A program made the translations under genes and the position numbers. A DNA stretch of 63,996 nt, the filler included, from Malassezia furfur (lineage: Eukaryota): the NCBI GenBank assembly GCA_052055015.1. It is 3 parts of 3 records of this genome, joined end to end, with 100 filler letters (N's around TTAATTAATTAA, not from the genome) between each part and the next. Parts side by side here need not be neighbours in the genome. Positions count along the whole stretch, not along the records: positions 23,175 to 46,226 come from JBQJIT010000153.1; 2 more parts are not named here. The stretch is one strand, 5' to 3'. Shown piece by piece: positions 10,426 through 39,002 of the stretch (position 1 is its first letter; the number at the start of each line of letters is the position of its first letter). The notes below the pieces were generated by a model. It searched no databases and was not told the DNA's origin. It saw nothing but the letters and a program-made list of their open reading frames with translations.

Positions 10426-12930
10426 ATGCAGGCGAACGTGCGCAGCTGGAGCGTGCCTGCCTCCCCATCACGCACGCACGTCGCGTACGCGCGGGGACGA
10501 TCCACACACGATCGCTTTGCGTCCACAAGCGATTCCGAATCCCGCCAAGGGTCACCGGCATCGTCGGCACACACCCCGCTGCCGATCACGCCCTCGGCGC
10601 CGCACTCACAGCACACACACTCCCATTACCTGACGCCGCTCGCGCGCACCAGCGACCCTGACGCCATCGCCGGTGTGGGCTCCGCGCCGCGTTCGCTCAG
10701 TCGCCGACCCAACACAGCGACGGGCGTGTCGACGGGGGCGTGGCACGCGCCGTCCTCGGTGACGAGCCCCACGAGCCCTACGAGCACCGTATCGCTGCGT
10801 TCGCGCCGCCCGGCGACTGCGACGTCGTCCAGCTCGCAGAACGTGGGCTATTCGGTGGGCCGCGGCGCCTTTGCATCGAGCCATGCGGCCAAGCCGCGCA
10901 CGATGCACATCAGCGCACCGTACAACCTGCGGCGCGCCGACTCCGAGTCCGACTCAGAGAGCGCGCGTGGCGAGCCGGCGGTGAGCCCCGCGTTCAAGAA
11001 CTTGCGGCGTGCGTTGATCAAGTTTTACGCATGCGATGGCACGTCGCGGATCGTGGACGTGAGTGGGTGCCCGTCGGCGCACGAAGTGCTCGTGCGTGTG
11101 CTGCGCAAGTTTGGGGTGTCCAAAAGCGACACGGAGCAGGACGGTGTTATTTATATGAGCCCCTTTGCATTCGCCATGACCGGTACGGACGGCAAGCTCA
11201 AGGTGCTTTCGGAGAACGAGCTGATGGCCGTGTGCAATGCGCCGCATGCCTATACTCCCGTGTGGCAGAACGGGCTGTATATTATCCACCACGGCAAGCC
11301 GCTCCCCGACGTCACGGCACAGACCTCCGCGTCCGTGACGCGGCGTGCCTCGACGCAGAGCATCCTGCTCGGCCTCGGCGTGGAGAACGTGGCGCCAGAG
11401 GCGAGTCCGTCGCCGTCGCGGACGTCGTTTGCGCGGCGCGCGGCGCGCCCCGCTGTTGCCGTTGCCGTCGCGGCCACCGAGCCGCTGCGGCCGACGACGC
11501 GCGTCAAGCGGCGCGTGCGCAACTTCTTTGGACAGCGCCCGCCCTCGGAGTTGATCAGTTCGCACTTGTCCGAGTACTTCCCTGCAACCGACAGCCGCGA
11601 GCTGCAGCGCCACTCGCGCGCATCGCTCGGCGATGTGCCGCGGCCCGGCGACGCACCGCACGCCGCACCGCACGCCGCACCGCACGCCGCGCCTGCCGAG
11701 GATACACGGACGCCGAGCCCGGCGGCGGATGCGGCACGCGCTTTGCCGCCGCTACGCCGCTTCCCATCGCGCGGCGCAGCGCGCGTATCAACCTCGTCGC
11801 CGCACGGCAGCACGCGGAGCGATGCGTCGGTGGCCGACGACGAAGCATCGAGCCTGATCACCATGGACGAGATCACGCAGGATCTCGACGAGCGCAGCGC
11901 AAATGACTCGCACGGCGACGGGACGATGATCGTCGACCAGGACGGCGTGCCGATCCCCGTGCCGAGTCCGCGCGTGCGCGAGGCAAGTACCACCTCGCTG
12001 GTCGAGCATAGTGCGACACCGCCTGGTGCGGTGACGCCTACAGCGGATGCAGAGACCAGCACCGGCGAGGATGTGGCGGCCAAGCCGCGCATGCGGTGGC
12101 ACAAGGGCGCGCTGATCGGTGCCGGGTCCTTTGGCAAGGTGTTCCTCGGGATGAACGCCAAGACGGGGCTGCTGATGGCCGTCAAGCAAGTCGAGCTGCC
12201 CACGAGCGACGAGGCAGCGACGCGGCGGCGGCGGTACATGATCGAGTCGCTTGAGGCCGAGATTGCGCTGCTCAAGACGATCCAGCACCCCAATATTGTG
12301 CACTACCTCGACAGCTATGCGGATGGCGAGTTCCTCAACATTTTCCTCGAGTACGTGCCGGGTGGCTCGGTGGTGGCGCTGCTGCGCAACTATGGCGCGT
12401 TTGAGGAGCAGCTTGTGCAAAACTTTGTGCGGCAGATCCTGCAGGGTCTCTTCTTCCTGCACTCGCAGGCGATTGTGCACCGCGACATTAAAGGCGCCAA
12501 CATCCTTGTCGACAACAAGGGCGGCGTCAAAATCAGCGACTTTGGCATCAGCAAGAAAGTCGAGAGCGGCCTGCTCGTCAGCACGCGCGGACAGCGCGGC
12601 ATGCTGCAAGGCTCCGTGTTCTGGATGGCGCCCGAGGTGGTGAAGCAGACCTCGCACACGCCCAAGGCGGACGTGTGGAGTGTCGGGTGCCTCATCGTCG
12701 AGATGCTCACTGCGACGCACCCGTGGCCCAAACTCGATCAGATGCAGGCGCTCTTCCAGATCGGCATGAGCCGCCACCCCGAGATCCCGCCGGACATTTC
12801 GGCGGCCGCAACCGACTTCTTACTCCGCACCTTTGAGGTCGACGAGGCGCAGCGCCCGAGCGCCAGCGCGCTGCTCGACCATGTATTTATTACGCAACCC
12901 GTCCCCGAGGGCGCCGGTAAGGCAGACTAG
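10426..12930 (+). CDS. STE11: Ste11/Kpp4-like MAP kinase kinase kinase (RA domain plus C-terminal kinase)
   Basis: WHKGALIGAGSFGKV, MAVKQVE, HRDIKGANILVD, DFGISKK and GSVFWMAPE motifs, an RA-like block (IKFYACDGTSRIVDV) and the conserved FFGQRPPSELISSHLSEYFP. Confidence 0.88.
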   Translation: MQANVRSWSVPASPSRTHVAYARGRSTHDRFASTSDSESRQGSPASSAHTPLPITPSAPHSQHTHSHYLTPLARTSDPDAIAGVGSAPRSLSRRPNTATGVSTGAWHAPSSVTSPTSPTSTVSLRSRRPATATSSSSQNVGYSVGRGAFASSHAAKPRTMHISAPYNLRRADSESDSESARGEPAVSPAFKNLRRALIKFYACDGTSRIVDVSGCPSAHEVLVRVLRKFGVSKSDTEQDGVIYMSPFAFAMTGTDGKLKVLSENELMAVCNAPHAYTPVWQNGLYIIHHGKPLPDVTAQTSASVTRRASTQSILLGLGVENVAPEASPSPSRTSFARRAARPAVAVAVAATEPLRPTTRVKRRVRNFFGQRPPSELISSHLSEYFPATDSRELQRHSRASLGDVPRPGDAPHAAPHAAPHAAPAEDTRTPSPAADAARALPPLRRFPSRGAARVSTSSPHGSTRSDASVADDEASSLITMDEITQDLDERSANDSHGDGTMIVDQDGVPIPVPSPRVREASTTSLVEHSATPPGAVTPTADAETSTGEDVAAKPRMRWHKGALIGAGSFGKVFLGMNAKTGLLMAVKQVELPTSDEAATRRRRYMIESLEAEIALLKTIQHPNIVHYLDSYADGEFLNIFLEYVPGGSVVALLRNYGAFEEQLVQNFVRQILQGLFFLHSQAIVHRDIKGANILVDNKGGVKISDFGISKKVESGLLVSTRGQRGMLQGSVFWMAPEVVKQTSHTPKADVWSVGCLIVEMLTATHPWPKLDQMQALFQIGMSRHPEIPPDISAAATDFLLRTFEVDEAQRPSASALLDHVFITQPVPEGAGKAD
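11653..11688 (+). repeat. 12-bp coding tandem repeat (GCACCGCACGCC)x3 encoding APHA x3
   Basis: Read directly from the sequence. Confidence 0.9.
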
Positions 12931-21473: not shown

Positions 21474-23074
21474 ATGGACCGAGAGCGGAACCGGGGGCCT
21501 GCGCCCGCGGAGCCGGGCGCGGCACATGCCGCGCGGCATGCATCGTCCAGCCATCCCCATCGCTCGCGGCCAGAGCTGTCGAGCTACTTCTCGCGGATGC
21601 GCGTGAGTCGCTCGCGGCCGGTCGAGACGCCGATGCAGATGAGTACGCCGCAGGCCGAGCAAGGCATGCTCGAGCACATTGCGTTCGAGGACGACCCCAA
21701 CAAGCGCCTCGAGTGGCAGATGATGCTGCGCTCCGTGCTCGAGAGCGAGGTGCTCAGCAGCGAGACGAAGCGCATTACGTCCGTGGACGCCTCCGTGCCG
21801 GCGCCGAGCGAGTTTATGTACGAGATCTGGTTCAAGATGCGCGCCATGCACTTTGGCAATGCCGAGGGGCGCTACAACACAGACATCCAGCGCAAGGTAC
21901 TGCAAGAGATCCAGCAGCAGGTCATGCCGACGCTCATCGAGGACATCACGCGCGCGCGCGACTTTGGCGCTGTGTCGCCGTCGTCCGAGCGGCGGCGTAC
22001 GCCGGGCGAAGCGCCGCCGACGGCCGCCGCGGGCGATGCCGAGGACGACAACCTGACGCGTGCCTCGCCTGAGCAGCGTGCCGAGGCCATGCGCGAGGTT
22101 GCGGCGCTGCTCGCGCGCGTCGACGTGGCCGAGTCGCTCTTCCCGTCGCAGCGCCAGATGCTGGCGGCGTTCCCTGCGTGGGGCAGTCCCGCGGTGCAGC
22201 AAAAGCTCGCGGCGCTGTACTCGTGGTACAACATGACGCGCTCGCTGCAGGCACAGGCCGTGGTGCTCGCCAAGTGGACCGGGTCGCTTACGGGCCCGGG
22301 TGGGATCGTCGGCGCGTCGAGCTTGGCCAGTGGGGTCGGGCTGCCCGGCGTGGGTGCCTCGGATGCGGCCGAGCGCGGCGGTGACAGCGACGTGCACACC
22401 GACACGCGTGTCGAGGACATTTTCCGCGAGAGCAACCTGCAGCAAACGTTTGAGCGGCGCACGCTGCATGCGCTCAACCAGCTCGTGCTGAAAGCGCGCG
22501 AGACCACCGCGCTGTACCACACGGCGTTCCGTGCGATGCGTCTGCCGTCGTTTGAGCCCGACGTGCTGCCGCTGATCAAGTTCCCCATGTGGCTCGCCGA
22601 GGGTGCGCTGCGCCAGCGTCTCGCGTACGCGGACAAGCTGAAGGAGCCGAGCGTGCTGCTGGTCGAGTCGCTGTCCGAGGACCTGCGCACGGCGATAGCG
22701 CTTGCGTGCCGCATCAAGCTGCAGTACGCCGAGGCGACCGTGTCGGATCCCGAGCGCGGCTGGGATCTGCCGCTGCAGTCCGACGACGCGTTTGACGCGA
22801 CGGTGTGTTCTGCGCTCGTCTTCTTTTTCCGGCTGCTCCACTTCCGGCTGAAGAGCGTGGCGTACTTCAAGGAGGTCGACCTGCTCGAGCCCGAGTGGGA
22901 CTTTTTGTGCTCCGCGGTGAAGGTGATCCCCGGCGGCGATGCGATCGTCGCGCACAAGACGGCGTACATGGTGAACCGGCTGTTTGTGCGCATCATCGCC
23001 TACTTCCAGCGCGAGCTGCAGGCGCCGAGTGCGAAGCGTGCGTCGGCCGCCGCGCCGGCGCCCGCGTCGGACGC
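21474..23074 (+). CDS. Ssk2/Wis4-like MAPKKK, N-terminal regulatory region, truncated by assembly gap
   Basis: RLEWQMMLRSVLESEVLSSETKRI and LRLPSFE-like Ssk2 N-terminal motifs. The kinase domain is not visible. Confidence 0.7.
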
Positions 23075-23174
23075 NNNNNNNNNNNNNNNNNNNNNNNNNN
23101 NNNNNNNNNNNNNNNNNNTTAATTAATTAANNNNNNNNNNNNNNNNNNNNNNNNNNNNNNNNNNNNNNNNNNNN
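23075..23174. other. Assembly gap / artificial contig spacer (N44-TTAATTAATTAA-N44)
   Basis: N-run with a six-frame stop linker at 23119-23130. Confidence 0.97.
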
Positions 23175-23176
23175 TC

Positions 23177-24284
23177 ATGTTTGCTCGTGCCGCCCTGCGT
23201 AACAGCGTCCGCGCCCCGGCTTCGGCCCGCTACTTCTCGCAGACTGCGGCTGCGAACCGCAAGGTTGCCGTGCTCGGTGCCTCGGGCGGTATTGGCCAGC
23301 CCGTATGTTGCGCTTCGCTAACACACAGCTCTCGCTCCTGATGAAGCTCAACCCCAAGGTTACCGAGCTCCGCCTGTACGACATCCGCCTCGCTCCGGGT
23401 GTTGCTGCGGATCTCTCGCACATCAACACCCCCGCGGTGACTTCGGGCTACGCCCAGGACGACCTCGAGGGTGCCGTCGACGGTGCGGAGATTGTGCTGA
23501 TCCCCGCCGGTATGCCGCGCAAGCCCGGCATGACCCGTGACGACCTGTTCAACGTACGTGAATCAGCTTATACAGTCGAACGCCTCGATTGTCCGTGACC
23601 TCGCCAAGGTCGTGGCTAAGGTCGCCCCAAAGGCTTACATCGGCGTCATCTCGAACCCCGTCAACTCGACGGTGCCGATCGTCGCTGAGGTGTTCAAGAA
23701 GGCCGGTGTGTACGACCCCAAGCGCCTCTTCGGTGTGACCACGCTCGACACCACGCGCGCGGCCACCTTCCTGTCGGGCATTGCTGGCTCGGACCCGCAG
23801 ACCACCAACGTCCCCGTCATTGGTGGCCACTCGGGTGTGACCATTGTGCCCCTGATCTCGCAGGCCGCCCAGGGTGACAAGGTGCAGGCTGGCGAGCAGT
23901 ACGACAAGCTTGTGCACCGCATCCAGTTCGGTGGTGACGAGGTCGTCAAGGCCAAGGACGGTGCCGGCTCGGCGACGCTCTCGATGGCCTACGCCGCCGC
24001 TGTCTTCACCGAGGGCCTGCTCAAGGGTCTCGACGGTGAGGCGGTGACGCAGTGCACCTTCGTCGAGAGCCCCCTGTTCAAGGACCAGGTCGACTTCTTC
24101 GCCTCGCCCGTCGAGTTCGGCCCCGAGGGTGTGAAGAACATCCCTGCTCTGCCGAAGCTCACCGCCGAGGAGCAGAAGCTGCTCGACGCCTGCCTGCCCG
24201 ACCTTGCCAAGAGTACGTATATGAATGTGGTGGCTGACAACAGACATCAAGAAGGGCGTTGCGTGGGCCGCCGAGAACCCGTAA
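23177..24284 (+). CDS. MDH1: Mitochondrial malate dehydrogenase (Mala f 4-like allergen). Introns 23303-23328, 23554-23575, 24213-24243
   Basis: Presequence, [47 protein letters not shown] and GSATLSMA. All three introns restore conserved MDH sequence. Confidence 0.95.
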
Positions 24285-24393
24285 ATGCGCAAAGCAATCT
24301 TTTACGGAGCTTGCGCGAAGGAAAGGAAATGTACGTTTCTATAGAACGTAGATCTGTCCCTTTCCACCTATTTGTGCGTTGCATCGTGTGTGT

Positions 24394-25485
24394 CTACACA
24401 ACCTTTGTAACAGAGGTATCCACAAAGCGCGACACGTCCCAGCCCTGGGCCGGCGTCTGCAAAACACCGGCGTCCTCCAACACCTTGAGAGTGTGAAGTA
24501 GCATAGAAGACGAGAGCGTGTATGCATTCGTCTCACCTGCACGAGGGTCGGTCGATTTCTTGTTTTCGGGGTCGGGAGTCGTTTCACCCGCCCACCGCAC
24601 CGTCGACGCCCACTCCGCAATGTCTTCGGGCTTATAGTGATGGACGCTTTCAATAAAGGCATGCAGTGAGCCATCCTTGCGTGTTTCAGGATTCGCAAAG
24701 GACTTGATCGATTCATCCAACTTGTGCAAAAACATTTCTAGCGTGCTCTTTTGCGACTCGAGTGCCGTAGCCTTGCTCGCGGCAATGGTCCACGATGGCC
24801 ACGGCGTAGGCAATGCGCCGATAAAGCGCACTTCGCCCGAATCTTGGAAAGGTTTGGTCGTGAACCACTCCCTGAGTTAGCAAATAACATACCACATAAA
24901 GAATCCTGTCTCATGTCTGCGTCAGTTACATTACATACCCAGGCTTCTGGTTGACCCCATCGCGAAGAGTCTTGAAGTCATTGTTGACCACGAACTCTTG
25001 CGACTCAACCTTGCCGTCAGCGTCCGTCCAGCCTTGCTCGAGGCCAAGGACGCTAGCCATCAAGTGCGAGCCACTACCAAGGCGACTCACACCAACCTTT
25101 GCATGGCGCAAATCAGCCACGGTTTGGTACTTGCTGGCAGCAGGCGCCGTACCCGTAATAATCGCCCTGTGTAAGCCGGCAACGTACCAGTTGAGGCTAC
25201 TGCGTACATAGCTTCCAGCAAGAGCATAGTCATCACGTCCTTTGGCAATTCCGGCAATGAGCCCTTCGGTGAGGGCCACGGCGACGTCGATTTTTTGACC
25301 ACCCGGGCTGTTCGCATCCAGCGAGCTCAGCATTTGGCCCGTGCCAGACGCCTGCTCCACGAGCTGAATGTGTTCTTTTCCCTAACATTAGATGTACGAC
25401 ATACCCATTCCGTTTCGGCCAACTTGAGCAACGGTGCCGCAAAGTGCTCCGGCACATATCCGACGCGCAAAACAGAGCTGGTCAT
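24394..25485 (-). CDS. Periplasmic-binding-protein type 2 fold protein (NMT1/THI5-like, Ca3427-type). Introns 25382-25404, 24917-24938, 24872-24892
   Basis: [35 protein letters not shown] and spliced FMWEWFTTKP...TPWPSW motifs. Confidence 0.8.
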
Positions 25486-25565
25486 GGTGGATGGAAACCA
25501 GCCGGCTTCGTCCCCACATCACGTGGGTGGGCCGTGCGTTGGCACCTGCGCGTCGAATTCTCGCA

Positions 25566-26346
25566 TTAGACGTGCACAGGCCCAGCAGGGTAGCCGCGGT
25601 AGTGCAGCAAAACTGCCTGCTGGTAGTGCCAGCGCAAAAAGTTGTCGTTCGGGTGGACGAAGCAACTGCCAGTAAACCGTGTCCTGTCAAAAGTTCGGCC
25701 ATGAATGCCCATGGTATACAGAGCTGGCCATAGCCCAAACACGTGAATGGCATAGGTCCCTTCCTGTGGTTAGACCGTCACGCACAGAGGGATAAATGGC
25801 CACATCGTAGTTTGAAAATGCGTCGCACATTGTATGACTGAGCAACAACACGTTCGTGATGCCTGTCACGTCTTCGTGCGCACCTGCGAGCGTATGCCGC
25901 AAACCCGTAAATGCGTACGGAACAATGTCACAGATGCACTCGCCTTCCTCCCCAGAGATCACACAGCGGCTGTCGCGCTCTTTGGCCAGTGTTGTTAGAA
26001 TGCTGGTCAGGTAACTGGGCCGTATTGCACCTGTCAATGGAGCAATGTAAGGCCCATACTGCAAAGGAAGACTGACCAGTCGACCATCCTTCGGCTTGCC
26101 AAACAAGTACCTGCCAGAGAAGAGATCATCCAGTTGATTAACAGTCTTTCCATATACCGTACGCAGCTCTCCAATATACTCGGGATCGTGGACACATTGA
26201 CGAATGCAATGGAGTACAAAGCACCAATTGAGATTCCCACTAGACTTGAGCGAGCCAACGGGGATGATGCAGAGGCGTAGCCCACTGGGTTCAAACACTT
26301 CTATTGCCCCATGATTGGGCCATTGGTTCATGGTTAAACCGAACAT
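25566..26346 (-). CDS. Fungal HNH_2 endonuclease-like protein, degenerate. Intron 25764-25785
   Basis: ERDSRCVISG...IVP...NVLLL...AF.NY..AIYP, and after splicing HPNDNFLRWHYQQAVL. Confidence 0.65.
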
Positions 26347-26557
26347 GAAAGGAAAAGAGCGAGAGCACTAGGATACGGGACGGAGCAAGCGAGCTCGGTG
26401 CCCTATATATGTCTCTACGGCACTCCCCATGCACACGGCACGAGAGCTATACAGATACATACGCTTACAGAACTGCAGGTGTGCAGAGACCGGGATATGC
26501 AGGGGCCCTTAAAGCTTCGTTTTAAGCAACGATCGGGCGAGAAGGGAGGGGTATATG

Positions 26558-27683
26558 TCAAACTGGTGCAGGTGCCTCCACCAGAGAGGGTGATACACCC
26601 GTTTGTGATTGGGCGTTACGCGCGCGGTGCGAATCTGTGTTCTTCTCGGCGAATAGGGCACAGTCTTGCTGCACCTTTTGCTCCAGCTGTACCACGGCTC
26701 CTGCAAGAAGTTCAATTTGGCGTCGGGCCTGTCCGAGCGTTTGCGCCTCTTCCTGCAGGAGCGTGGCAATTTGTACATTTGCGATCTCTTCAGGCGACGT
26801 TGATGGTACTGGCTTGGCCGAGTTGCCAAACTGGAAATATTCGGTGCGGCCAACGTCCAACAGCTGTGATAGGCTTGACGTGCTTTGCTCCAATGTAAGA
26901 AGCACTGCAGCAAAGTTTTGGCTGATCATGACAATGATGTCGTATGTCGTCAACTCGGAGAAAATACGGGCCCACCAAGGCTGTGGATCCGAAACAATCA
27001 ATTGGATCTGAAATGCAAAGGTGCATGCCTGAAGTAGGAGGCCCCACTGGGTTAGAGAGGGACGTACGTAGGTACCGGCACCAACCGCGTGGCTTCTCCC
27101 GCGCCCAATGAGCCATGCAAGTGCCTGCATGCCCAGAAATTGGAACTGAAGAGCAAAAATCATCCTCACGCCTTGAATAAGAAACTCGCGCATGGTGCTG
27201 AGTCTGCGCCACGAATCTGGATCCTCGCCAAACCTCAAGGTGAGTGTGAGATACGTACCGGTCGTATGCGTAGCGCAGCAATGGATCAGACAACACCGTA
27301 TAGGCGTGCTGCAGTCTTAGAAACAGCCCTTCGTGCTCGAGGCCTGCCTTGTCGGGGTGGTAAATCCGCGCAAAGTAGCGATATTTTTGCTTGATTTCGT
27401 GTTCTGTAGCAGATGGACTCAGTCCGAGAACAGTGTATAGGTTCTGCGGTAATCCTGTATAGCTGCGCACCACACAATAGGCCAGGTATAGCAGTACGAC
27501 CATCAACCGCGCTACATGCCAGTGTGTGATCGCTGCGGCGCTTTTTGGCGGAGGTCGGTGCAGCCGAAATGGGCCCGGCAGACCATACGCAGCTTGAAGG
27601 AGCATGCGAATGCCGAAGCTTTCCGCTGCACCCCAGGCGCCCCAGAGCAGGACTTGATTGACGACGGCCTTCACTAAGCTCAT
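26558..27683 (-). CDS. Membrane-associated DnaJ-domain protein. Introns 27234-27258 and probably 27047-27067; 3' end uncertain
   Basis: NLYTVLGL...IKQKYR...YHPDK...AYTVLSDP..RYAYDRFG J-domain flanked by TM segments. Confidence 0.8.
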
Positions 27684-27758
27684 GGTGGAAAGGGGTGTGG
27701 ATTTAAGTTGGCACGTGCGCGTATCCTCGCAGGTTCGAGTGTTGGATCGCGCCGCGAC

Positions 27759-30321
27759 ATGCAAGTCCGGCGTGAACGAGGCATGGTCCGAGGAAGGAGT
27801 ATAGACACGCCGTATGAAATTGAAGACGCTGGGCCGTTTGACGAACAGGTGGAACTGTCCCTCTTGCACGATGGGAAGCCGCCCAGCCCTGGAGATGCCG
27901 AGTCGCAGCTGTTCGACGAGGACCATACGCTCCAAATGGTACGCCAAGTCGTACCGGAAACCGATATACCGACACTGCCATCTCTGACCTTTCGCTCAGT
28001 GGTACTAGGAAGCATTTTTACAATCCTTGGCGCAGGGATGTCACAACTGTTTTTCTACAAGTCAAACGCGCCGGTGTTTAGCAGCTACTTTGTGATCCTG
28101 GTCACTCTGCCGATGGCTCGCTGGATGGCAAGCGCATTACCGGATCGTGTGATTAATCTGTTTGGATGGCGATTCCGTCTGAACCCAGGGCCATTTAGTG
28201 CGAAAGAGCACGTCCTAATTGCCGTAACCGTGACGTCCGGTGCGACGAGCGCCTATGCCTCGGATATCATCAACATTCAAGAGCTCTTCTTCCACCAGCA
28301 CATGAGTGCGATTCCTGCCCTGACTCTCCTTATTACAACGCAGGTGATTGGGTTCGGGTTTGCGGGGCTGGTCTACGACCTGCTGGTGCGCCCGCCCTCT
28401 ATGGTGTACCCCAGCACACTCGTGACTGTTTCCTTGTTCAATACACTGCACGACACAGAGTCATCATTGACGCGCATCCGGATGCGTTTCTTTCTTCTGG
28501 TGTTTGGAGGCATTTTTGTATACCAGTTTCTACCCACCACCTTGTTCCCTACGCTCAGCAGCATCGCTACGCTCTGCTATGTGCATCGCAGCCGCGTGAC
28601 GCAAATCCTGAGCTCAGGCTACCGCGGGTTCGGTATTCTCAACTTCAGCTTTGACTGGAATGTGGTGGGGTCTAGCGGTCCTCTATTCCAACCATGGTGG
28701 GCGGCGCTGAATTTCTACGCTGGGATCATGGGTATGATGTATGTGATCATGCCACTCCTCTACTTTTTCAATTTCTGGGAAGCCCAGTCATTCCCAGCTG
28801 TGCTCAGCTCAGGGCTGTTCACAAGCAACTACACAAAATTTGATGTGGATGGCGTGCTCAAGAAGGACAACAGTTTGGATGACGCGGCATGGGAGCAGAA
28901 CAAGCCCATGTTACTTACGCCCTTTTGTACGTGACGCACTCACCCAGTTGCACTCTCGTATGGTATTTCAGTATGTTTTCTGCTGACCTAGTTTGCGGTG
29001 TTGACTAGCACGGTACGTCAGACGCTAATGCAGATTACCCATGTGCTGTTGTGGCACGGCAAGGAGATCAAAAAGGCGTTATTTAATCCCGTGTATTCGG
29101 CAGGTGCTCTGCGCTAACCCAGGATGTGCACAACAAACTTATGCAGTCTTACCCCCTCGTGCCCCAATCCTGGTATCTCTGGACGCTCGCGCTCTCGCTC
29201 GGCTCGGCGTCAGTCCTGGTCATGACCACCCCGCTGCAGTTCCCAGTATGGGGACTGCTATTGTCGGTGGGCATGTCGCTGTTTTTCCTGATCCCCATTG
29301 GCATCTTGAAGGCTGTCAGTGATACTGGCGTTGGACTGAACGTGATTACTGAGTACGTGATGTTCTCACCCAGATTTGTCGCAGGTTTCCTCATCCCCGG
29401 CAAACCGATCGGAAGTGCGTTTGCTCGCTGCTGACGCAGACGTATGCTGGAAGTGTTACGGGTACATGAGCTGTGCACAGGCGCTGGACTTAATCGGCGA
29501 CATGAAGCTGGCGCATTATATGAGTACGTCTCTTGACTGATCACAGAAATCAACCCGAAACACATGTATGTACCCGCATCGTCTGACTCGCAGGTTTTTG
29601 TCGCAGTTGCTGTACGTGAGAGACTGACGCAGTGGCACGGTAATCGGGTGTTTCATGAACTACCTGGTCGTGTGTATTGTGCTTGCGCCGCAGAACGGGT
29701 ACCGCCAATTTCTAGACGGAAGCGGTACGTCCCTGGCTGACCCAGTGCCGGATCCAAGTGGCCAATGGGATGGACGGTTCGTGACAAGGCTCATCGCAGC
29801 AAAGTGCACATCTTTCGATCGGCGTCGATCATTTGGGGTGCAGTTGGCCCCGAGCGCTTCTTTGCAGGGCGATACCGCAGCCTGTACTGGGGCTTCGCGC
29901 TTGGTGTGCTGATTCCTCTGGTACCCTGGTTGCTCCACAAGCGTCTGGAGCGGGCGAAGCGAATGGTCTTGCGCGAGTCGGTGTTCAGCAAGACGGTCGT
30001 GCCCATCATCCTACACGGCGCTATTGCACCGCCAGCAACGCCGACCAACGTACGTGACATGGCTGACCCAGATCATCTTGGGCGGGCTGGTCTGTGCGTA
30101 CTTGTCGCAAAAATGGGCCCGTGAGCGCCACCCCGAGTGGTTTGGCAAATTCAAGTACGTGCAACGCTCACCCCAGCTATGTGCTTTCCGCAGCCCTCGA
30201 TGCTGGTGCATCGATCAACGCGCTTTCAGTGTTTGTCCTGTCCATTACGGTTTTCCGCTGGTGGGGCCTGCCCCACTTCTTTGCCGGAACCGACGCGGAG
30301 CACTGTCAGGTTGCCTCGTAG
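27759..30321 (+). CDS. OPT-family oligopeptide transporter with 13 introns of 21-28 nt
   Basis: LTFRSVVLG, NPGPFSAKEH, QVIGFGFAG, and after splicing DVHNKLM, GLNVITEFVAGFLIPGKPIGN, DMKLAHYMKINP, IWGAVGP and NYVLSAALDAG. Confidence 0.92.
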
Positions 30322-30376
30322 GATGACTAAGCATGGTCTGCGCGCGGTTAGCGTGACGCCACCGTCTAGCGGAGAT

Positions 30377-31477
30377 ATGTGGGGTGGCAGGCTGGTTCCT
30401 GGTTTCTTTTTTTTAGTGCCCGGCCTGTGGCTGGTGGACGCCATGATCATTCCTTCTGATGGTGCATCGCGAACGCGTACCGTTTCATTGGAACGACGAC
30501 AAAGCCCGAGCTCGTCGTCCGGAGGCGATTACAACCCTTCGCCGACGAACGACCCGGGACCCTCGGGCGGTCCGATCTTCAGCTACCCGTTTATCACCCT
30601 GGCTGTTGTGGCAGTCGCCGTATTTGTGCTCATCACCATTCTAATTGCTGTACGCATGACGGTCTGGAATCGCCGCGCGCGTCAGCGTATGCTGGACATG
30701 AACGATGAGTATTTCACCCACCCCTTCGGCGGCGTTCAAAGACCGGCAATGGACCCTATCAAACCCCCACCGATTCTAGAGAAGAAGATTGCGCCGGCTG
30801 CTACGCATCACCGGCTCCCCTTCACCCATGCGACAGCCGATTGGAGCGCACTGCAGCCCGTCTCTGTGTGCTTCGATCAGGAAACCTCGGACGCCATCCG
30901 TGCCTCGTCGGGCACACAACAAGATCCGAACGAGACGATGTCGCTCAAGGTGCAAGTTACGTGTCTTGTAAGCCTGCCGACGGCACGCACTGTATTCCCC
31001 GACCGGCTGCGCCGGCGGCCACTCAAGGACGCCAAGGCCTCTATACTAAACCCCTTGTTCCACGGCGTTCATGGCAGGCCCAGCTATGAGGGCGATCTAA
31101 CAGGCGATCTCTCGCGTGTATCATCCGTCAAGCGTGCGGGCAGTGTCTATTCCCGCATGTCAGCCAAGGAGGCAAGTGATGCCCGTCGCGATGCTTATTT
31201 CGAAAATATGGAGAAATCGGCACAGATTGGTGGTCCTGGCTTGGCCCCGCCCAAGCCGGATCTCTCGCGTCGCAACTCACGCACGTCGATGGCCACTGAC
31301 AACGAGGCCAAGGGCGAGGATGTGGAGCATGTGGGCATTTTTGCCTTCGGCTCGGTGGTACTGCCTGTGATCAAGGGCAAGGGCAAGGAGTTGTTTTTCG
31401 AGAAGAACGGGCATCTGAAGAGGTCGGACGTGATGGCACTGATGGAGCATGCACAGCGTGCCCAAGGCCCGACGTAG
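30377..31477 (+). CDS. Hypothetical single-pass membrane protein with signal peptide
   Basis: N-terminal hydrophobic stretch, short S/P/G-rich ectodomain, one long TM (FITLAVVAVAVFVLITILIAV) followed by a basic stop-transfer. Start codon uncertain (30323 also possible). Confidence 0.7.
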   Translation: MWGGRLVPGFFFLVPGLWLVDAMIIPSDGASRTRTVSLERRQSPSSSSGGDYNPSPTNDPGPSGGPIFSYPFITLAVVAVAVFVLITILIAVRMTVWNRRARQRMLDMNDEYFTHPFGGVQRPAMDPIKPPPILEKKIAPAATHHRLPFTHATADWSALQPVSVCFDQETSDAIRASSGTQQDPNETMSLKVQVTCLVSLPTARTVFPDRLRRRPLKDAKASILNPLFHGVHGRPSYEGDLTGDLSRVSSVKRAGSVYSRMSAKEASDARRDAYFENMEKSAQIGGPGLAPPKPDLSRRNSRTSMATDNEAKGEDVEHVGIFAFGSVVLPVIKGKGKELFFEKNGHLKRSDVMALMEHAQRAQGPT

Positions 31478-31510
31478 TTTTAGCGTATTTTTGTAGAGTT
31501 TCTATACCCC

Positions 31511-32649
31511 TCACGACCATGTGTTTCGCATAATCGTCATGATCGCCTCCTCTACGTTGTCCGCAATGAGCGTAGGCTTGTGTGCCGGAGGACCTTCCAC
31601 ATCGCGGTATACACCCGTACGCACGAGCGCCGACGACCAGCCGAAGTTGTTTGCACCCATGATGTCGGACGCAGGGTTGTCACCAATCATCCAAATGTTT
31701 TCAGGAGCGACATGGATGTCGTTGCCATTCGACGCACGGTTCAGCAGCATTTGGAGAAGCTCGTTGGCATACTCATACGTCATCTGCTCGGGCTTCCCAA
31801 AGGTGATCGCATTCATCTCGTCTCCATCAGTGACGCGCTTGTACACGGCCTCAAGCGCCGTACGGAAGGCGCCTTGACCAAGACGGGGAAGCGCAAAGTT
31901 GTTTCCCCACAAAAGATCGCCATGCGAAAAGTAGATAGGAATCTTGCGACGCTTCCGCAATTCCTCATTGGTAACCATCGTGCCAAACACGCCCTGATCC
32001 GAACGCAAGATGTCCAGGCAGTACTGGATATCGCGGCCCCACTCACGGCTGTCATGGAACACGAAAATCGCTTCAAATTGAACCTTAGAGAAGTCGGCGT
32101 GTCGCACCGCAACCTGTTGCTCAGGGTCAGGATCCGCGTAAGGGAAGGACGCGGGCGCATAAGCGTGCAAGTCAAAGGCCGTGTACACCTGATTAAAGCC
32201 ATACCTGCGTTAGTTTGCTGTACATACGATTCCAACACAGAACGAGAGCCACCAGGCGGCAGGTTGGGTCCACCGATCATCAGGACCGGCTTGTCCGCAT
32301 ACAGCGAAACCAACGATTGCATTACCGTGTGAGCCTGAATGACTTGTTCTGGTACAATTTTTTGCTGAAAGTCATCAGAGAGATCCAGAGCACGCTTCGC
32401 CTCTTCTTTTCCACCGCTGTTTGTGATGAATAGGTAAGGCACCTTGGTTTGCCAGGGATTATCTCCTTCCAGCATCTTGAGTGTTCGCACGGCCTCCGGA
32501 AGCACAACCGACCCTTGCTTCAGTACGCCATCAATGTCAAAGGCAATAGCAAGTGGTGTGCGTTGCTTTGTTGTGGCGATGGTGCGCGTCAGGAACCGTG
32601 CAGATCCCAAACCGCGCGTGCCCCGCAGACCACTACGTAGAAAGCTCAT
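31511..32649 (-). CDS. HAD-superfamily IIA hydrolase, CECR5/HDHD5-like, probably mitochondrial. Intron 32205-32227
   Basis: AFDIDGVL, FITNSGG, PRLGQGAF, FGKPE and MIGDNPASDI motifs with an Arg-rich presequence. Confidence 0.88.
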
Positions 32650-32786
32650 TTGGATACAACACCAAGAGCGACCTCGCCTGACGTAAGCGTTCAAAGATCT
32701 GCGCACGGTCCCACGTGGACGGGCCAACGGGGCCAGCTAGGGCAGGGGGGGTAGGGTGGCGCTGCGTTGAATCCACCATTGCTAAG

Positions 32787-33356
32787 ATGCTTCTCCGCAC
32801 GTACGCTCGCCCTGCCTCGCTTTTCATGCGCTCGATTGCTCCGACTGTGCAGCCTGTGCGCACAGTGACGTCGCTGAGCAAGACGATGTACACGGCTAAG
32901 GCGGAGTCGTCGGGTGGCGGCCGTAACGGCGTCGCCAAGCTGCGCGAGGAGGGCCCGCTCAAATTCCAGTTGGCCTTGCCCAAGTCGCTCGGTGGTAGTG
33001 GCGAAGGCCAGAACCCTGAGCAGTTCTTCGGTAAGTTGATGGCCTAACGCAGCTATGGGCTACTCTGCATGTTTCCTGAGTGCGCTCAACAGCATCGCTC
33101 GCAGCCAAAAGTACAAACTTCCGGAGGACACTGAGGTGCACGCCGATGTGAGTATTGGTGTGCCGGAGGGTTCGACGGGCTTTGCCCTTGCTGTGGAACT
33201 GGTCGTGAAGGGCTCGTTCCCTGGTTCTGACAAGGAGACTGTCGAGAAGCTGGTGCACGATGCCCACCAGATGTGCCCCTACAGCCGCGCTGTGTACGTT
33301 TTTCTATTTTCTTACGCAGCCGTAACAACATTCCGGTGTCGGTCTCGGTGGCCTAA
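32787..33356 (+). CDS. ohr: Ohr (OsmC/Ohr family) organic hydroperoxide reductase with mitochondrial presequence. Introns 33031-33052, 33294-33319
   Basis: GGGRNG, spliced NPEQFFAMGYSACF and AHQMCPYSRA motifs; both catalytic Cys are present. Confidence 0.9.
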
Positions 33357-33530
33357 GCGCATTGTAGTAGTCCCAACTTTCGTAGTACACACCTACATTG
33401 CCACGTTCTCAGCACTTCGCTCCGCGTCCGCAGTCCACTTCCAAACGCGTAGCTGCTGATTTCGGTATCGGCAAGCCGTTGTGACACAGCCGTGGTTTCC
33501 TGACAGCGTGACTGTTGTCTGAATACTGAA

Positions 33531-33843
33531 ATGCTGGGGCTAGGGACTATCTTCTATACGGCTTTGCTATTAATCAATGCCATTGCCATCCTTAATGAGG
33601 AGCGTTTCTTGAACCGAGGTATGGTGACAAACTAACCACAAGTGGGCTGGTCCAACAACTCGCGGTCGATGAGCTTCGACACAGACTCGGACGCAGGCGT
33701 CAAGACGCGGCTGGTGAACTTAATAAGTGCTGTCCGTGTTTTGCTACGGAGTATGTACGGTTGGAACCCCGCAATATCTTACACCAGTCCCGCTCATCGT
33801 CGTGAACATTCTTGTGATCATCTACGAGCTTATCCTAGGTTAA
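33531..33843 (+). CDS. YOS1: Yos1/IER3IP1 ER-Golgi membrane protein. Introns 33619-33642, 33752-33787
   Basis: Spliced product LLLINAIAILNEERFL.RVGW...VNLISAVR.LLRIPLIVVNILVIIYELILG. Only fragments appear in the ORF track. Confidence 0.9.
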
Positions 33844-33979
33844 CCATACATAGTATATCGTATCCGACGTTCCATGCATGCGTGTTGTGCTTAGGTCCGC
33901 CCGGCAATGTAGGTGTGCGCCCGATCTTGCAGTGTTGGTTAGTGCCTCGGAATTGCTCATCGGGAATTTGGTAAGTAGA

Positions 33980-36900
33980 ATGTCCACGCCGGACAGTGTT
34001 GTTCCTAGGAACAACGTCACGTCCCAATACGGTGAAATGGACGCTTATGCGCCAGACATGGCCGGCTCATCTGCCGCCGTGTACGAGCCTGACACAGTAC
34101 AGGCAAAACACAGACGCGGCGAAGCTAAAGAGCAACGTCGCCGGAAGCGCCGCATGCAGTTGGCGGCAGCTCTCATCGAAGCCGACAACGATGAGATTCA
34201 ACAGCGGATCGACTTCCTGGTGAACGTTGACCCAAGTTCAAAAGAGCTTCTCAACGATGACTCTTTGTTGCCAAAGTACGCGAACCAGAGCGTAATGTTT
34301 CATGATGCCGTTAACCCAACGGGCTGGCAGCAATATTCGCGCCCGGTGTATGTGCATCCGCCGCAGTCCATGCGGACCCTTACGCAATCATACCTTGGTA
34401 TGGCGGGAAAGCTGGTGGGAGACGACACAGAGGACCTGCATATCCTTGATGAAAGTACGGCTGCCGCACCCGAACCTACGTCGGTGGGAGAAGTTGCACA
34501 GAATCTACTAAGCATCAACTTACCTGACGAAGAGCTCGCACCAAGCATGGAAAAGACATGGGATACTGTGGAAAAGAAGGCCAACAAGCGTCGACCCACA
34601 CTGCGGAATGCATCTTCGCTGCCAGCCATACCCACGGTGGATGACCTTGATAATACCCAAGACCTATCTCTCGACACAACCCAAATCAACCCGGAGACAC
34701 AGAGTCGGAGCGCTCTGCTTCTTGCGCGTATTCGAAAATCGCGCATCGTTTCAGACTCTAAAGCGTCTGAAGGCGACATGAGTGTCGACTTGGATGATTC
34801 GCAACAGGACAACAAGCCGACGGATCAACCACCCGAGACACAGCAGGGCGTTGAACCTGAACGACTTGAGCCCCCAGTGTCCCACGAGTCGACCGAATCG
34901 TCTGACCCTGTGAGTGGGTCAGTCTCCGATCTCCAAGGGTTTCGTGCAAGGGTACTTAAGTCGCGACCTGACCGTCGCAGGTCGAGCCGACGGCATTCTC
35001 TGGCCGTCTCTGGTTGGCCTGGTGAAGTTGTACTGCATGAGCTACTTCAGCCAGCTCAGCCAGACAATGATCCGGAAGTGGACGAGAAAAAGACCGGCAG
35101 CCATGGCGCAGACGGCACAGGGAACGAGTCGATGCAAGCCATTGCCCCGCTCCTTGCGCGACGAGCCTCGTCGCACCACAAAGATTTGACGTTTTCAAAA
35201 TGGACGAAACGCAAGCGTGGCCTGCGCTCGCTTTTTCCTTTTGAGCGACGAAAACCGCCCAGCCAGGCCCGTATGGTCCAAGACGAGCCGATGCTCTTGC
35301 TGGACATTTCAGAAGACCAACCTGCTACGACTAACACACAGACGATCCTTACGGAGCCATCGCCTGTTGTCGACCGAAACAATACGGAAACGTTTGCAGC
35401 GTCTCAGCCTTACCAGGACGAAGAACTGGTGGGAGTCAGTTTGCAAACACCAATTGTTGATCAGCCCTCGCACCTGGAAGCTTCGAACCCTGTACATGAA
35501 CCCATTCCAGCATCGACGAAGCTTCCTCAAAACGAGATGCAGCACACTGTCTCGTTTGAGCCCAATGAGGTTGCCCTTCCGGCCCGGGCCCAACGCATCA
35601 CCTTTATTTGTATTCCACCGCCATTGGAGCACATGCCCCGTGAATACCCACAAACCGCCTTTTATGTCCCGCACGGAGCGTTCTATGTCGACGATCGAGG
35701 TGTTGTTCTTCCTCGCAACAAGACGCAAAACGAGGCCCATTATGAATTGGACTTTGGACCTGTGGAAGTACCCGCAGGGATTGGACGACGTGTCTTGTAT
35801 CCTACAACGGCCCTCTTCCGCAACGTGCTTGTTACTCGTGACGAGGAGCACGAAGGATGGGGCTTTGAGCGATTCACGAATGCCTTGGCTTACTTCAGTG
35901 CCCTCCATGCCGATGACGATGACTCGGACGACGAAGTGCCTCTCATGGATGTACGTATCCAAACCAAAGAAGAGCAGCTCGCACGACGACGCATTCACCG
36001 TGAACGCGTTCGCCGGAAGCGCGCGCGTATGGAGCGCCACCGCCTTCGCGAGCTTGCTAAGCGCCAAGGGAAGCGCGCATCGGTATTTGGCATCCCTGAG
36101 GAAAGCAGCGAGAGTGCCTCGGACGACGTGTCCACGGACTATTCGAGTTTTAGCAGTGATGAGTCGGATCCTGAACAATTGTGGAAAGACGATCGGCGAC
36201 CAGCAGGCAAGCTGTATGGCAAGAGTCTGCTTGCCATGGCCAATGAGTATGACAATCACAAACTCTCTCGGGTCCGCTTCTACGGCCAGGACCACACCAA
36301 GAACGCGCGTCACAGTGCACCAGCGGATGGCTTGGGCGGCTTCCACAATGACACACGCGAGCGTATGACCAAGGTATTTGCCCCCCATCCGCGCTGGATG
36401 AACGACATTGCGCGTCGTGATGCGGAGAACGCCACAGACCAGTTCAAAACCTTGTCGGTGGGTGGTACACCGCTCCTTGGTGAGCGGGAACAAACCGATT
36501 TGCTTATGGAGCCCGGTGTCCAAGAAGGCATCATTTTCCCCTCGGTGCACGACGCGCAAGAGGCCGAGGCGCGTGCCGCCGAGGAAGCCGACGACGTGGC
36601 CGTTGCTGCCTGGCAGGACTCTTCGAGCGACGATGAACCTGAGTCCGACCGTAAGTCGACGCGCTTCCAGCCCGAGAAGCCGAGATGGGAGGCACAAGAA
36701 GAAGACGACTTGCCGCTCGACCAGCTGCGCCGCCGCTCGGCGCCCGTGCGCGCAAAGCCACCGATGGACGACTCAGACGACGAGCAGCCCTTGGGCAACC
36801 GACACCGCCAAGCGGCGATCATCGCCGAAAATCAGGCCTTGATTCGGCAGCTTATGGAGGAAAACCGGCAAGTGCGCATGTCGCTCCAAATGCTGACATC

Positions 36901-38242
36901 GGCTCCGTACGTCATGCCGTGGATGCCGCCGCAGCTTCCGGGTCAGTTTGCGCCCATGCCGCATTTCGACGAAGATGCGCCGTTGCTGGGCGACGAAGTG
37001 CAGGACGTGGGGATTATGGCATCCAACGACTCGGCTGCTTTGACTCATTTTGGCACGACGCCCATGGCGCAGAGCAAGGAGTACTTTGACGCCATGCGCA
37101 GTTCGATGTATTCGAACGAGGCACCCATGCCTATGGACATGAAGTCCGGCCTGGGTCTCACGAGTACATACGGTACGAATGGCCAAGCAGAACAGGCCGA
37201 AGGCGCTGCGCCTTTTTACGACGGCGCAGAAGACCATTATATTCCAGAGGATCTTGGTGAAGAGCATTGGGATGCACGCCTGCAACCGCCCTGGTCCCAG
37301 GATGAGCCTGCGCAGTCTGAAGCTATGCATGGTGAGTACGAGCAAGGCGCGTACGTCAGCCAAAGCGAACACCTCTACGACCAGGCGTGGTCCCAGGCGC
37401 AACAAGAATACGAGCAAGAGGCATATGAACGTGAACAGTACTACGCACAGGACAACGATGGACAGTACCATGCGTACGAACAGGAGCAATATGCCTATCC
37501 TACCGACGAGCAGGGCGAATATGCCTACAATGCTGATGAGCATGGGCAGTACGCCTACAATACGGGCGAGCATGGCCAATATGAATACGATGCCAACGAG
37601 CACGACCGGTATGCATACAACGGCGGTGAAAACGGCCAGTATGAATACAACCGCAATGAGCATGACCAGTACGCATACAATGCCGGCGAGCATGGCCAGT
37701 ATGAATACAACGGCAATGAGCATGGAGAGTATGCGTACAATGCCGATCAACTTGGGCAATATGCACACCATGGTGATGAGCACGGGCAGTATGCGTACAA
37801 TGGCGAAGATGGCCAACATGAATACCATGGAGGCGAACATGGCGACCATGCGGGTGGCTATTACGACCAGCAAGGCGAGCCTGCTCAATATGAAGGGCAG
37901 GATCAGTACGTGAGCGGCTACGACACGTACGGTGAGACATACGGCCAGGAAGCGCTGGAGAGGCAATCCTCTGAGTCTTTCCCGAACCCCTACCCTGAAC
38001 ATCCTGCCGATACATACGCTGGCGATTATGCACCATCGCAGCCCTGGGATGCGCATGCGTTGCACCGCGAAGTCTCGGAGTGGCTTGCCGCACCCGAAGA
38101 AATGCGCAGTGCTTCCGAGATCAAAGGCCCTCGCTTCGAAGAACTTGTCGATCTGCCGCGCACATCCGCGGCGGAGCAGCCGACTGGTCACCCGGCCACC
38201 GAGTCGGACCTACTCGATCTGTACTCGATAGAGGCCTCGTAG
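33980..38242 (+). CDS. Large low-complexity hypothetical protein (about 1420 aa) with C-terminal Tyr/Glu/His/Gly decapeptide repeats
   Basis: Uninterrupted 4.26-kb ORF in a lower-GC region. No recognisable domain. Confidence 0.8.
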   Translation: MSTPDSVVPRNNVTSQYGEMDAYAPDMAGSSAAVYEPDTVQAKHRRGEAKEQRRRKRRMQLAAALIEADNDEIQQRIDFLVNVDPSSKELLNDDSLLPKYANQSVMFHDAVNPTGWQQYSRPVYVHPPQSMRTLTQSYLGMAGKLVGDDTEDLHILDESTAAAPEPTSVGEVAQNLLSINLPDEELAPSMEKTWDTVEKKANKRRPTLRNASSLPAIPTVDDLDNTQDLSLDTTQINPETQSRSALLLARIRKSRIVSDSKASEGDMSVDLDDSQQDNKPTDQPPETQQGVEPERLEPPVSHESTESSDPVSGSVSDLQGFRARVLKSRPDRRRSSRRHSLAVSGWPGEVVLHELLQPAQPDNDPEVDEKKTGSHGADGTGNESMQAIAPLLARRASSHHKDLTFSKWTKRKRGLRSLFPFERRKPPSQARMVQDEPMLLLDISEDQPATTNTQTILTEPSPVVDRNNTETFAASQPYQDEELVGVSLQTPIVDQPSHLEASNPVHEPIPASTKLPQNEMQHTVSFEPNEVALPARAQRITFICIPPPLEHMPREYPQTAFYVPHGAFYVDDRGVVLPRNKTQNEAHYELDFGPVEVPAGIGRRVLYPTTALFRNVLVTRDEEHEGWGFERFTNALAYFSALHADDDDSDDEVPLMDVRIQTKEEQLARRRIHRERVRRKRARMERHRLRELAKRQGKRASVFGIPEESSESASDDVSTDYSSFSSDESDPEQLWKDDRRPAGKLYGKSLLAMANEYDNHKLSRVRFYGQDHTKNARHSAPADGLGGFHNDTRERMTKVFAPHPRWMNDIARRDAENATDQFKTLSVGGTPLLGEREQTDLLMEPGVQEGIIFPSVHDAQEAEARAAEEADDVAVAAWQDSSSDDEPESDRKSTRFQPEKPRWEAQEEDDLPLDQLRRRSAPVRAKPPMDDSDDEQPLGNRHRQAAIIAENQALIRQLMEENRQVRMSLQMLTSAPYVMPWMPPQLPGQFAPMPHFDEDAPLLGDEVQDVGIMASNDSAALTHFGTTPMAQSKEYFDAMRSSMYSNEAPMPMDMKSGLGLTSTYGTNGQAEQAEGAAPFYDGAEDHYIPEDLGEEHWDARLQPPWSQDEPAQSEAMHGEYEQGAYVSQSEHLYDQAWSQAQQEYEQEAYEREQYYAQDNDGQYHAYEQEQYAYPTDEQGEYAYNADEHGQYAYNTGEHGQYEYDANEHDRYAYNGGENGQYEYNRNEHDQYAYNAGEHGQYEYNGNEHGEYAYNADQLGQYAHHGDEHGQYAYNGEDGQHEYHGGEHGDHAGGYYDQQGEPAQYEGQDQYVSGYDTYGETYGQEALERQSSESFPNPYPEHPADTYAGDYAPSQPWDAHALHREVSEWLAAPEEMRSASEIKGPRFEELVDLPRTSAAEQPTGHPATESDLLDLYSIEAS
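37490..37845 (+). repeat. Degenerate 30-bp coding tandem repeat, about 11-12 copies of Y[AE]YNxxEHGQ
   Basis: YAYNADEHGQ, YAYNTGEHGQ, YEYDANEHDR, YAYNGGENGQ, YEYNRNEHDQ, YAYNAGEHGQ and further copies in the translation. Confidence 0.9.
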
Positions 38243-38249
38243 ATGTACA

Positions 38250-39002
38250 TTATGTTTTCACGATGCATGGGACCTGAACGACTCGGTCTTCTTGTGTGCC
38301 AGTCCTATCCACCTCCGGAAAATGGTTCAGGAGAGGCACGAGATGCGACATGATGCGCACCTTGCCTGGAAGTTGGTGGTGCGTTACGCGTGCGCTTGTT
38401 GAGGGCGTAGAGAAAAAGAGCGTGACGCCATGGTCGTGCACGATACAAGCCGGTAAGACGCCGTAGCCCGCATCGATGCGGGGAAAAGCATCGTCATGCT
38501 TGGGATCAAACCAGAAACCCAGGACGGACCGCGGGATGGCGAGGGTGACGCTCTCAGTACCAATCCAGTGCATCTCTTGCAGTTCACGAAGAAACGTCTG
38601 CCCGATTTGCTTCCCCACAAAGCAGACAACTTTGGGCTGGTACGTGCGCACTTTGTCAACCAGCTCTGGGACGCCTGCAGCAAGCTCTGACTTGGCCAGC
38701 TGCTCGCTGCGAGCTGTCGGTCTGTGTGCCAGGTTGGTGAGACCCAGTTTATAGGGTTCCTGCAGCGGGAATGACCAGTCGTCCGTCGGCGCGAGCCGCT
38801 CGGACGTCAGACCCGACTGGTGCACGCATGTATAGAAGTGGTTGGAGCGGTGCGCATAATGCCGCTGCTGTGCGCCCGATTCGGCACCTGGATTGATGCC
38901 GCAGATTAGCACATCCAAACCGTTTGCCAGATAGTCCGGCACGCGCTGGGGACTCGGCGCAAAAAAGCGAGACGCAACCACCCGGCGCGGCGCACGCACC
39001 AT
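38250..39002 (-). CDS. G/U mismatch-specific DNA glycosylase (TDG/MUG family)
   Basis: LDVLICGINPG, HYAH.SNHFY, GLTNL..RPT, PKVVCFVGK and PSTSAR motifs. Confidence 0.88.
   Translation of the reverse strand: MVRAPRRVVASRFFAPSPQRVPDYLANGLDVLICGINPGAESGAQQRHYAHRSNHFYTCVHQSGLTSERLAPTDDWSFPLQEPYKLGLTNLAHRPTARSEQLAKSELAAGVPELVDKVRTYQPKVVCFVGKQIGQTFLRELQEMHWIGTESVTLAIPRSVLGFWFDPKHDDAFPRIDAGYGVLPACIVHDHGVTLFFSTPSTSARVTHHQLPGKVRIMSHLVPLLNHFPEVDRTGTQEDRVVQVPCIVKT

Follow-up and report, generated by a model that had tools for sequence, protein, structure and literature searches.

Thirteen minimal introns crowded into the second half of a Malassezia furfur oligopeptide transporter gene are probably the relic of an old intron-dense gene

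How does a gene come to have no intron in the first half of its coding sequence (CDS) and 13 in the second? The question is raised by an OPT-family oligopeptide transporter gene at positions 27759-30321 (+ strand) of a 63,996-nt stretch of Malassezia furfur DNA (GenBank assembly GCA_052055015.1), which was analyzed at its full length and is herein called the window. A preliminary description of the window had pointed to a crowd of introns of little more than 20 nt in this gene, separated by exons that are often no longer, and had taken the arrangement to suggest ordered splicing or regulation by intron retention. We arrive at a historical answer: the crowding is probably the relic of an old, locally intron-dense gene, kept in the Malassezia clade that includes M. 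furfur (clade A) and lost independently elsewhere.

When the 13 introns (Table 1) are taken out, the locus gives a single 2271-nt frame, stop codon included, that encodes 756 aa. No gap opens at the 13 junctions when the spliced frame is aligned with 16 homologs from Malassezia, further Ustilaginomycotina and more remotely related basidiomycetes, and the micro-exon peptides ALSYGIS, FAVLTST, INPKH and FLSQL are conserved among these homologs; ALSYGIS (micro-exon 2) is also kept in intron-free orthologs. Exon 1 matches the Pfam OPT profile PF03169 over profile positions 2-299 (E = 4.6e-65, 220.9 bits; cut-off 25.8), and two later exons match subsequent stretches of the profile, exon 5 with 57.4 bits. 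Over exon 1, the protein is 100% identical to P0001 (GLX27_002268), the public M. furfur protein, and its identity to the corresponding proteins of M. yamatoensis and M. psittaci is 85%. The 756-aa product is colinear to its end with the intron-free frame of an orthologous species (species A, below), which extends over positions 2-622 of the 623 in the OPT profile and reaches 512 bits on TIGR00727. By sequence, the gene is the M. furfur ortholog of the fungal ISP4/OPT1-type oligopeptide transporters, with a predicted role in transport; the OPT identity given in the preliminary description is confirmed by scores above the cut-offs of both PF03169 and TIGR00727. Set against the ISP4/OPT1 small oligopeptide transporters of fungi (PF03169, TIGR00727), the protein belongs to the same family and is ordinary; the structure of its gene is the odd part.

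The introns span 21-28 nt, with a mode of 21 nt. Twelve of the 13 are GT-AG and one (29100-29122) is GC-AG; the donor is GTACGT in 8 of the 12 GT-AG introns, the acceptor is CAG or TAG throughout, and every intron contains a YTNAY branch motif with its A 5-7 nt from the 3' end. With a GT or GC donor, a branch motif, an AG acceptor and a conserved frame that is restored on removal, they have the features of U2-type spliceosomal introns, and none holds any sequence beyond its splice signals. Each interval of the preliminary description is present exactly where it was placed, and its alternation of 21/23/21/21/21 nt at 28927-29033 agrees with the measured lengths. From 5' to 3', the exons measure 1168, 23, 21, 66, 230, 41, 84, 19, 18, 92, 31, 250, 83 and 145 nt, and at 28927-29033 and 29524-29632 successive donors are only 42-46 nt apart. 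Intron phases are evenly split (four phase 0, four phase 1 and five phase 2). All 13 introns fall at relative CDS positions 0.51-0.94, a layout that, as had been remarked, is opposite to the one expected from poly(A)-primed cDNA loss; the density is 11.8 introns per kb in the second half (13 in 1103 coding nt) and 5.7 per kb over the whole gene.

Table 1. Exons and introns of the M. furfur OPT gene, in window coordinates
Feature	Coordinates	Strand	Length (nt)	Phase	Remarks
Exon 1	27759..28926	+	1168		389 codons + 1 base; intron-free; in one open frame 27678-28934
Intron 1	28927..28947	+	21	1	GTACGT...CTCAC..CAG
Micro-exon 2	28948..28970	+	23		ALSYGIS
Intron 2	28971..28991	+	21	0	
Micro-exon 3	28992..29012	+	21		FAVLTST
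Intron 3	29013..29033	+	21	0	In frame and stop-free if retained
Intron 4	29100..29122	+	23	0	GC-AG (GCAGGT...CTAAC..CAG)
Intron 5	29353..29373	+	21	2	
Intron 6	29415..29439	+	25	1	
Intron 7	29524..29546	+	23	1	
Micro-exon 8	29547..29565	+	19		(K)INPKH(M)
Intron 8	29566..29593	+	28	2	
Micro-exon 9	29594..29611	+	18		FLSQL
Intron 9	29612..29632	+	21	2	
Intron 10	29725..29745	+	21	1	In frame and stop-free if retained
Intron 11	29777..29799	+	23	2	Donor GTTCGT
Intron 12	30050..30071	+	22	0	
Intron 13	30155..30176	+	22	2	
Last exon	30177..30321	+	145		Stop codon 30319-30321

A chance origin of the cluster is excluded. A strict intron motif has 50 matches, 21-41 nt long, in the window, whereas Markov shuffles (n = 50) average 11.4 and never exceed 23. 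Of the 50 matches, 11 lie within the 1.25-kb cluster, where ∼0.1 would be expected (per 1.25 kb, one strand). The same motif has no match on the + strand of 27759-28926; nor does this segment contain a hidden in-frame intron in the form of an insertion relative to the orthologs, with which exon 1 is colinear. The intron-free first ∼1.17 kb of the preliminary description is therefore real, a single open frame over all 1168 nt.

Alternative boundaries were considered for the GC-AG intron and for the introns around the micro-exons. Only the GC-AG boundary of 29100-29122, which P0001 also uses, yields the VYS|DVHN junction that is conserved; with the GT donor that lies 4 nt downstream the frame would shift, and a longer intron starting at 29091 would remove the conserved VYS, so that GC-AG is preferred. 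Introns that skip micro-exons, either 28927-29033 (107 nt) and 28927-28991 (65 nt) or 29566-29632 (67 nt) and 29524-29632 (109 nt), are not multiples of three and break the frame; the sole in-frame option, 28971-29033 (63 nt), loses the conserved FAVLTST. Length arithmetic and alignment thus speak against the skipping of micro-exons through longer introns that the preliminary description had allowed for. Judged from the sequence, the 13 removals are needed, and jointly sufficient, for the predicted 756-aa protein.

An alignment of 11 relatives, run against metagenome contigs in search of orthologous DNA, yielded seven loci (L001-L007). The flanking genes match on both sides in all five loci that have both flanks (L001, L002, L004, L005 and L003, the match of the last resting on its ∼99.96% identity to L002); L006 comes without a flank and L007 with the upstream flank only. 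Because their flanks match on both sides, the five loci are orthologs. In species A, comprising L001 and the near-identical pair L002/L003 (92% DNA identity to L001), all three loci contain one unbroken 760-aa frame with zero introns. L006, which is 99% identical to protein P0005, is unbroken over aa 444-754. Species B (L004, L005) has four introns, at 7514-7538, 8033-8057, 8141-8168 and 8198-8224 of L005, and with these removed its 753-aa product is colinear with the M. furfur protein. The first three coincide with M. furfur positions 6, 12 and 13 (positions being numbered after the M. furfur introns), and their phases are identical. The fourth splits the codon matching G719 (30205-30207), a 14th position that is empty in M. 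furfur and filled in species B and in protein P0008.

Two further observations concern these contigs. Candidate micro-introns occur in L002 in the genes adjacent to the OPT gene (9556-9581, 9763-9786, 10913-10937 and 11052-11089); since the neighbors in species A keep candidate introns, the intron loss would be specific to its OPT gene. G+C content is 46-47% in the syntenic loci L001, L002 and L005 of species A and B, as against 56% in their M. furfur counterpart (21801-38300) and 62% over the window as a whole.

Additional positions come from protein sequences that appear to have been translated through an intron. We accepted a read-through trace where the divergence opens with the residue predicted from the split codon followed by GT, for example Cys after Pro-Phe at position 1 or Ser after Pro-Ile-Gly at position 6. 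Under such a rule, the M. cuniculi protein P0136 would read through positions 1 and 7 (the latter in frame), and its model stops at position 8. Putative traces are found at positions 12, 13 and 14 in P0008, at position 1 in P0152 and P0154, at position 2 in P0152 (Val-Cys, as read-through of GTATGT predicts), at position 6 in P0121, P0123, P0124 and P0125, and at position 12 in P0121; P0123 has a frame shift at position 11. The inserts of P0136 at positions 1 and 7 each amount to a net six residues and end in Leu-Thr, as expected for read-through of CTNAC-AG; these protein-derived lengths would imply introns of 18 nt in M. cuniculi, below any in the window.

In a maximum-likelihood tree of 28 sequences, M. 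cuniculi and its sister P0008 are basal, followed by clades A and B. This gene tree is in line with the species phylogeny published in PMC10410736, where clade C (M. cuniculi, M. slooffiae) splits first and A and B are sisters. Combining DNA positions, protein traces and tree, positions 1, 6, 7, 8, 11, 12, 13 and 14 would be common to at least two of the three clades. We regarded an intron as ancestral where the same position and phase recur in independent lineages and in outgroups; such recurrence is seen for positions 6, 12 and 13 in the DNA of species B, and protein traces point to it for positions 1, 7 and 8 (M. cuniculi), 12 and 13 (P0008), 11 (P0123), and 1 and 6 (outgroups).

The outgroup evidence comes from seven non-Malassezia proteins with interrupted frames (P0163, P0162, P0157, P0153, P0150, P0156 and P0017). 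The break lies at position 1 in P0163 (Violaceomyces) and P0162 and at position 6 in P0157, whose identity to Parajaminaea is 85%. The frame of P0153 is interrupted 1 nt away from position 5, where P0150 comes to its end; P0156 and P0017 break elsewhere, near residues 468 and 496. At least four of the seven breaks are no more than one codon away from a position occupied in M. furfur (rough binomial probability 0.003). The first half is unbroken in P0162, P0163, P0153, P0017 and P0156, and the frames of P0009, P0010, P0011, P0016 and P0020 are unbroken throughout. The combination of unbroken first halves and broken second halves in outgroups suggests that the half-and-half contrast is older than the genus. 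The asymmetry that had seemed to call for a regulatory reading would thus be inherited, as the unbroken first halves of five outgroups indicate, and is not peculiar to the M. furfur copy.

The history we favor would run as follows. The 13 introns of the M. furfur pre-mRNA would be ordinary spliceosomal ones, as small as introns get in this genome and each reduced to little besides a donor (GTACGT in most), a branch site of the CTNAC type and a YAG 5-7 nt past the branch A. In the ancestor of Malassezia, introns would have been absent from the first half of the gene and dense in the second, at no fewer than 14 positions, of which at least 1 and 6 may go back to an older ancestor common with other Ustilaginomycotina. 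Lineages would then have shed introns independently, often as neighboring runs, in a manner compatible with replacement by spliced cDNA. The outcome would be 13 introns in clade A, M. furfur included, four in one clade B species and none in the clade of P0004, P0005 and P0006. Splicing in vivo, the positions derived from traces and the cDNA mechanism of loss are what we infer from sequence patterns. No new mechanism is indicated. In Cryptococcus, adjacent introns have been lost together, many of the losses are internal, and replacement by spliced cDNA has been proposed (Sharpton et al., 2008; PMC2395259). The likeness to that account extends to presence and absence between close relatives, joint loss of neighbors and a 3'-most intron that is not always lost; the difference is that the Malassezia numbers (13, 4 and 0) occur within one genus in a syntenic gene, with the mechanism here suggested by the pattern.

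Several observations weigh against this history. Pure retention does not predict a local density of 11.8 introns per kb, far above the 2.63 per kb inferred for the ancestor of Ustilaginomycotina, whose present mean is 0.51 (PMC8476143, Table 1). Positions 2, 3, 4, 9 and 10 are seen only in clade A and could be later gains. An excess of phase 0 is typical of old introns, and the even phase split of the M. furfur introns lacks it. The runs of loss in species B are not significant by themselves, 95 of 1001 arrangements giving two runs or fewer in a hand count. Species B and P0008 both keep the 3'-most introns, which simple poly(A)-primed cDNA loss fails to explain. Finally, most of the cross-species positions derive from protein tails and not from DNA, and the Logan-derived proteins among them are assumed to have been called without splicing.

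Some of the same facts would suit a different history, in which most of the cluster arose when clade A, the lineage of M. furfur, gained introns in a burst and only a few positions are old. The five positions confined to clade A proteins, a local density ∼4.5 times that of the inferred subphylum ancestor and the even phases are all compatible with it. We nevertheless hold such a burst to be unlikely, since eight positions (1, 6, 7, 8, 11, 12, 13 and 14) appear to be common to at least two of clades A, B and C, and positions 1 and 6 to outgroups as well. A proto-splice AG|G pattern is missing from the exon junctions, the introns have nothing in common beyond splice signals and so give no hint of a mobile source, and loss far exceeds gain in fungal lineages, according to the relevant part of PMC8476143.

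The crowding could also be a regulatory device, as first suggested: adjoining spliceosomes could not occupy the RNA together, splicing would have to be ordered, and intron retention would tune the transporter, for instance under nitrogen or sulfur limitation. The tight donor spacing on which this idea builds is real, and the removal of one intron after another is a fair physical inference from it; retention of any of 10 of the 13 introns would introduce a premature stop or a frameshift and so switch the protein off. Introns 3, 5 and 10, however, are in frame and free of stops if retained and would make a poor switch, and the introns contain no signals other than those of splicing. Syntenic orthologs with zero or four introns indicate a function that is independent of introns across the genus, and the existence of intron-free orthologs argues against a conserved regulatory role. 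We consider this explanation quite improbable. That the gene is a decaying pseudogene or a modeling artefact whose "introns" are motif matches by chance, as the early end of P0001 and the garbling of several orthologous public models at the same places (see below) might suggest, has a negligible probability given a frame conserved to its last residues once exactly these 13 removals are made, 11 strict-motif matches where ∼0.1 were expected, and an exon 1 protein so close to those of M. yamatoensis and M. psittaci.

The public model of the M. furfur gene differs from ours at the 3' end. P0001 (697 aa) begins at the second in-frame ATG (27783) rather than at 27759, agrees fully with the spliced product as far as intron 11 and then reads through intron 12 to a stop at 30122-30124; a 24-residue read-through tail takes the place of the conserved C-terminal 75 residues. 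Its scores are 447 bits for PF03169 and 450.7 bits for TIGR00727 (cut-off 438.7), and it reaches only OPT profile positions 2-559 of 623. On comparison of the predicted proteins, the model with introns 12 and 13 is better than P0001, as it regains the C terminus common to all relatives. Elsewhere in the genus, micro-exon 2 is garbled in the M. yamatoensis model, as are exons 8-9 in that of M. psittaci; micro-exon 3 is absent from the M. brasiliensis model (P0026), which is fused to the downstream gene; micro-exon 9 is absent from the M. obtusa model (P0122); and the models of M. cuniculi and M. nana are cut short. The tail of P0026 matches the frame at 30125-31477 of the M. furfur window. Thus no fewer than six further public models of the Malassezia OPT gene are garbled exactly at micro-exons, and introns of 21 nt flanking exons of ∼20 nt still defeat standard annotation pipelines.

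What is unusual in this gene is the number and crowding of its introns; their tiny size is the norm of the genus. M. sympodialis has a mean intron length of 30 bp and 5350 introns in 4493 genes, 99% of them supported by RNA sequencing, as tabulated in PMC5389616 (Table 2), and M. restricta has a median of 30 nt and 2150 introns in 4390 CDSs (PMC9241646, Table 1). A review names "very short introns" as a trait of Malassezia (PMC7426719), and annotators have had to set the minimum intron length to 10-20 nt and to switch on the search for micro-exons (PMC5389616, PMC9241646 and PMC6473144). The introns of the M. furfur OPT gene are thus of the same type and size class as those of M. sympodialis and M. 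restricta, but these genomes average ∼0.5-1.2 introns of ∼30 nt per gene, whereas the OPT gene has its 13 in 1.25 kb. Introns likewise near the lower size limit and with little beyond splice signals are described in parts of the literature on ciliates (∼25 bp; PMC5014332) and myxozoans (PMC13644364); these organisms belong to another kingdom, and the likeness is one of intron size and bare content. Our literature searches on Malassezia introns and micro-exons returned nothing on the OPT gene or on micro-exon clusters, the supplements of the annotation papers lying outside these searches.

The rest of the window conforms to this norm. Crude models built by chaining open reading frames give ∼20 other spliced genes with one to four introns each and a weak 5' bias, 20 of the 33 introns lying in the first half. 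In a neighboring gene on the minus strand (24872-24938), two candidate introns of 21-22 nt surround a 24-nt exon (24893-24916), and its longest spliced frame (341 aa) takes both; this exon suggests that micro-exons are not exclusive to the OPT gene.

With 13, 4 and 0 introns in one syntenic gene of one genus, the OPT locus is a small, clean system for studying the block size and direction of intron loss and the part that expression level plays in it, and the same gene is suited to testing whether tightly packed introns are removed in a fixed order. A bolder version of the history, which we rate as rather unlikely, is that the second half preserves a very high intron density, the Malassezia ancestor having had 14 or more positions within 1.1 kb of CDS (∼12.7 per kb), and that the 21-nt introns between 18- to 23-nt exons could be removed only sequentially; given the old contrast between the halves and the 3'-most introns kept in two lineages, loss through cDNA would then have been internal or started from the 5' end, not from the poly(A) tail. 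If this were true, a stretch of high intron density would sit in an otherwise intron-poor fungal lineage, and the gene with its 13, 4 or 0 introns would lend itself naturally to testing in which direction introns are lost and how tight a spacing of exons and introns a spliceosome can handle.

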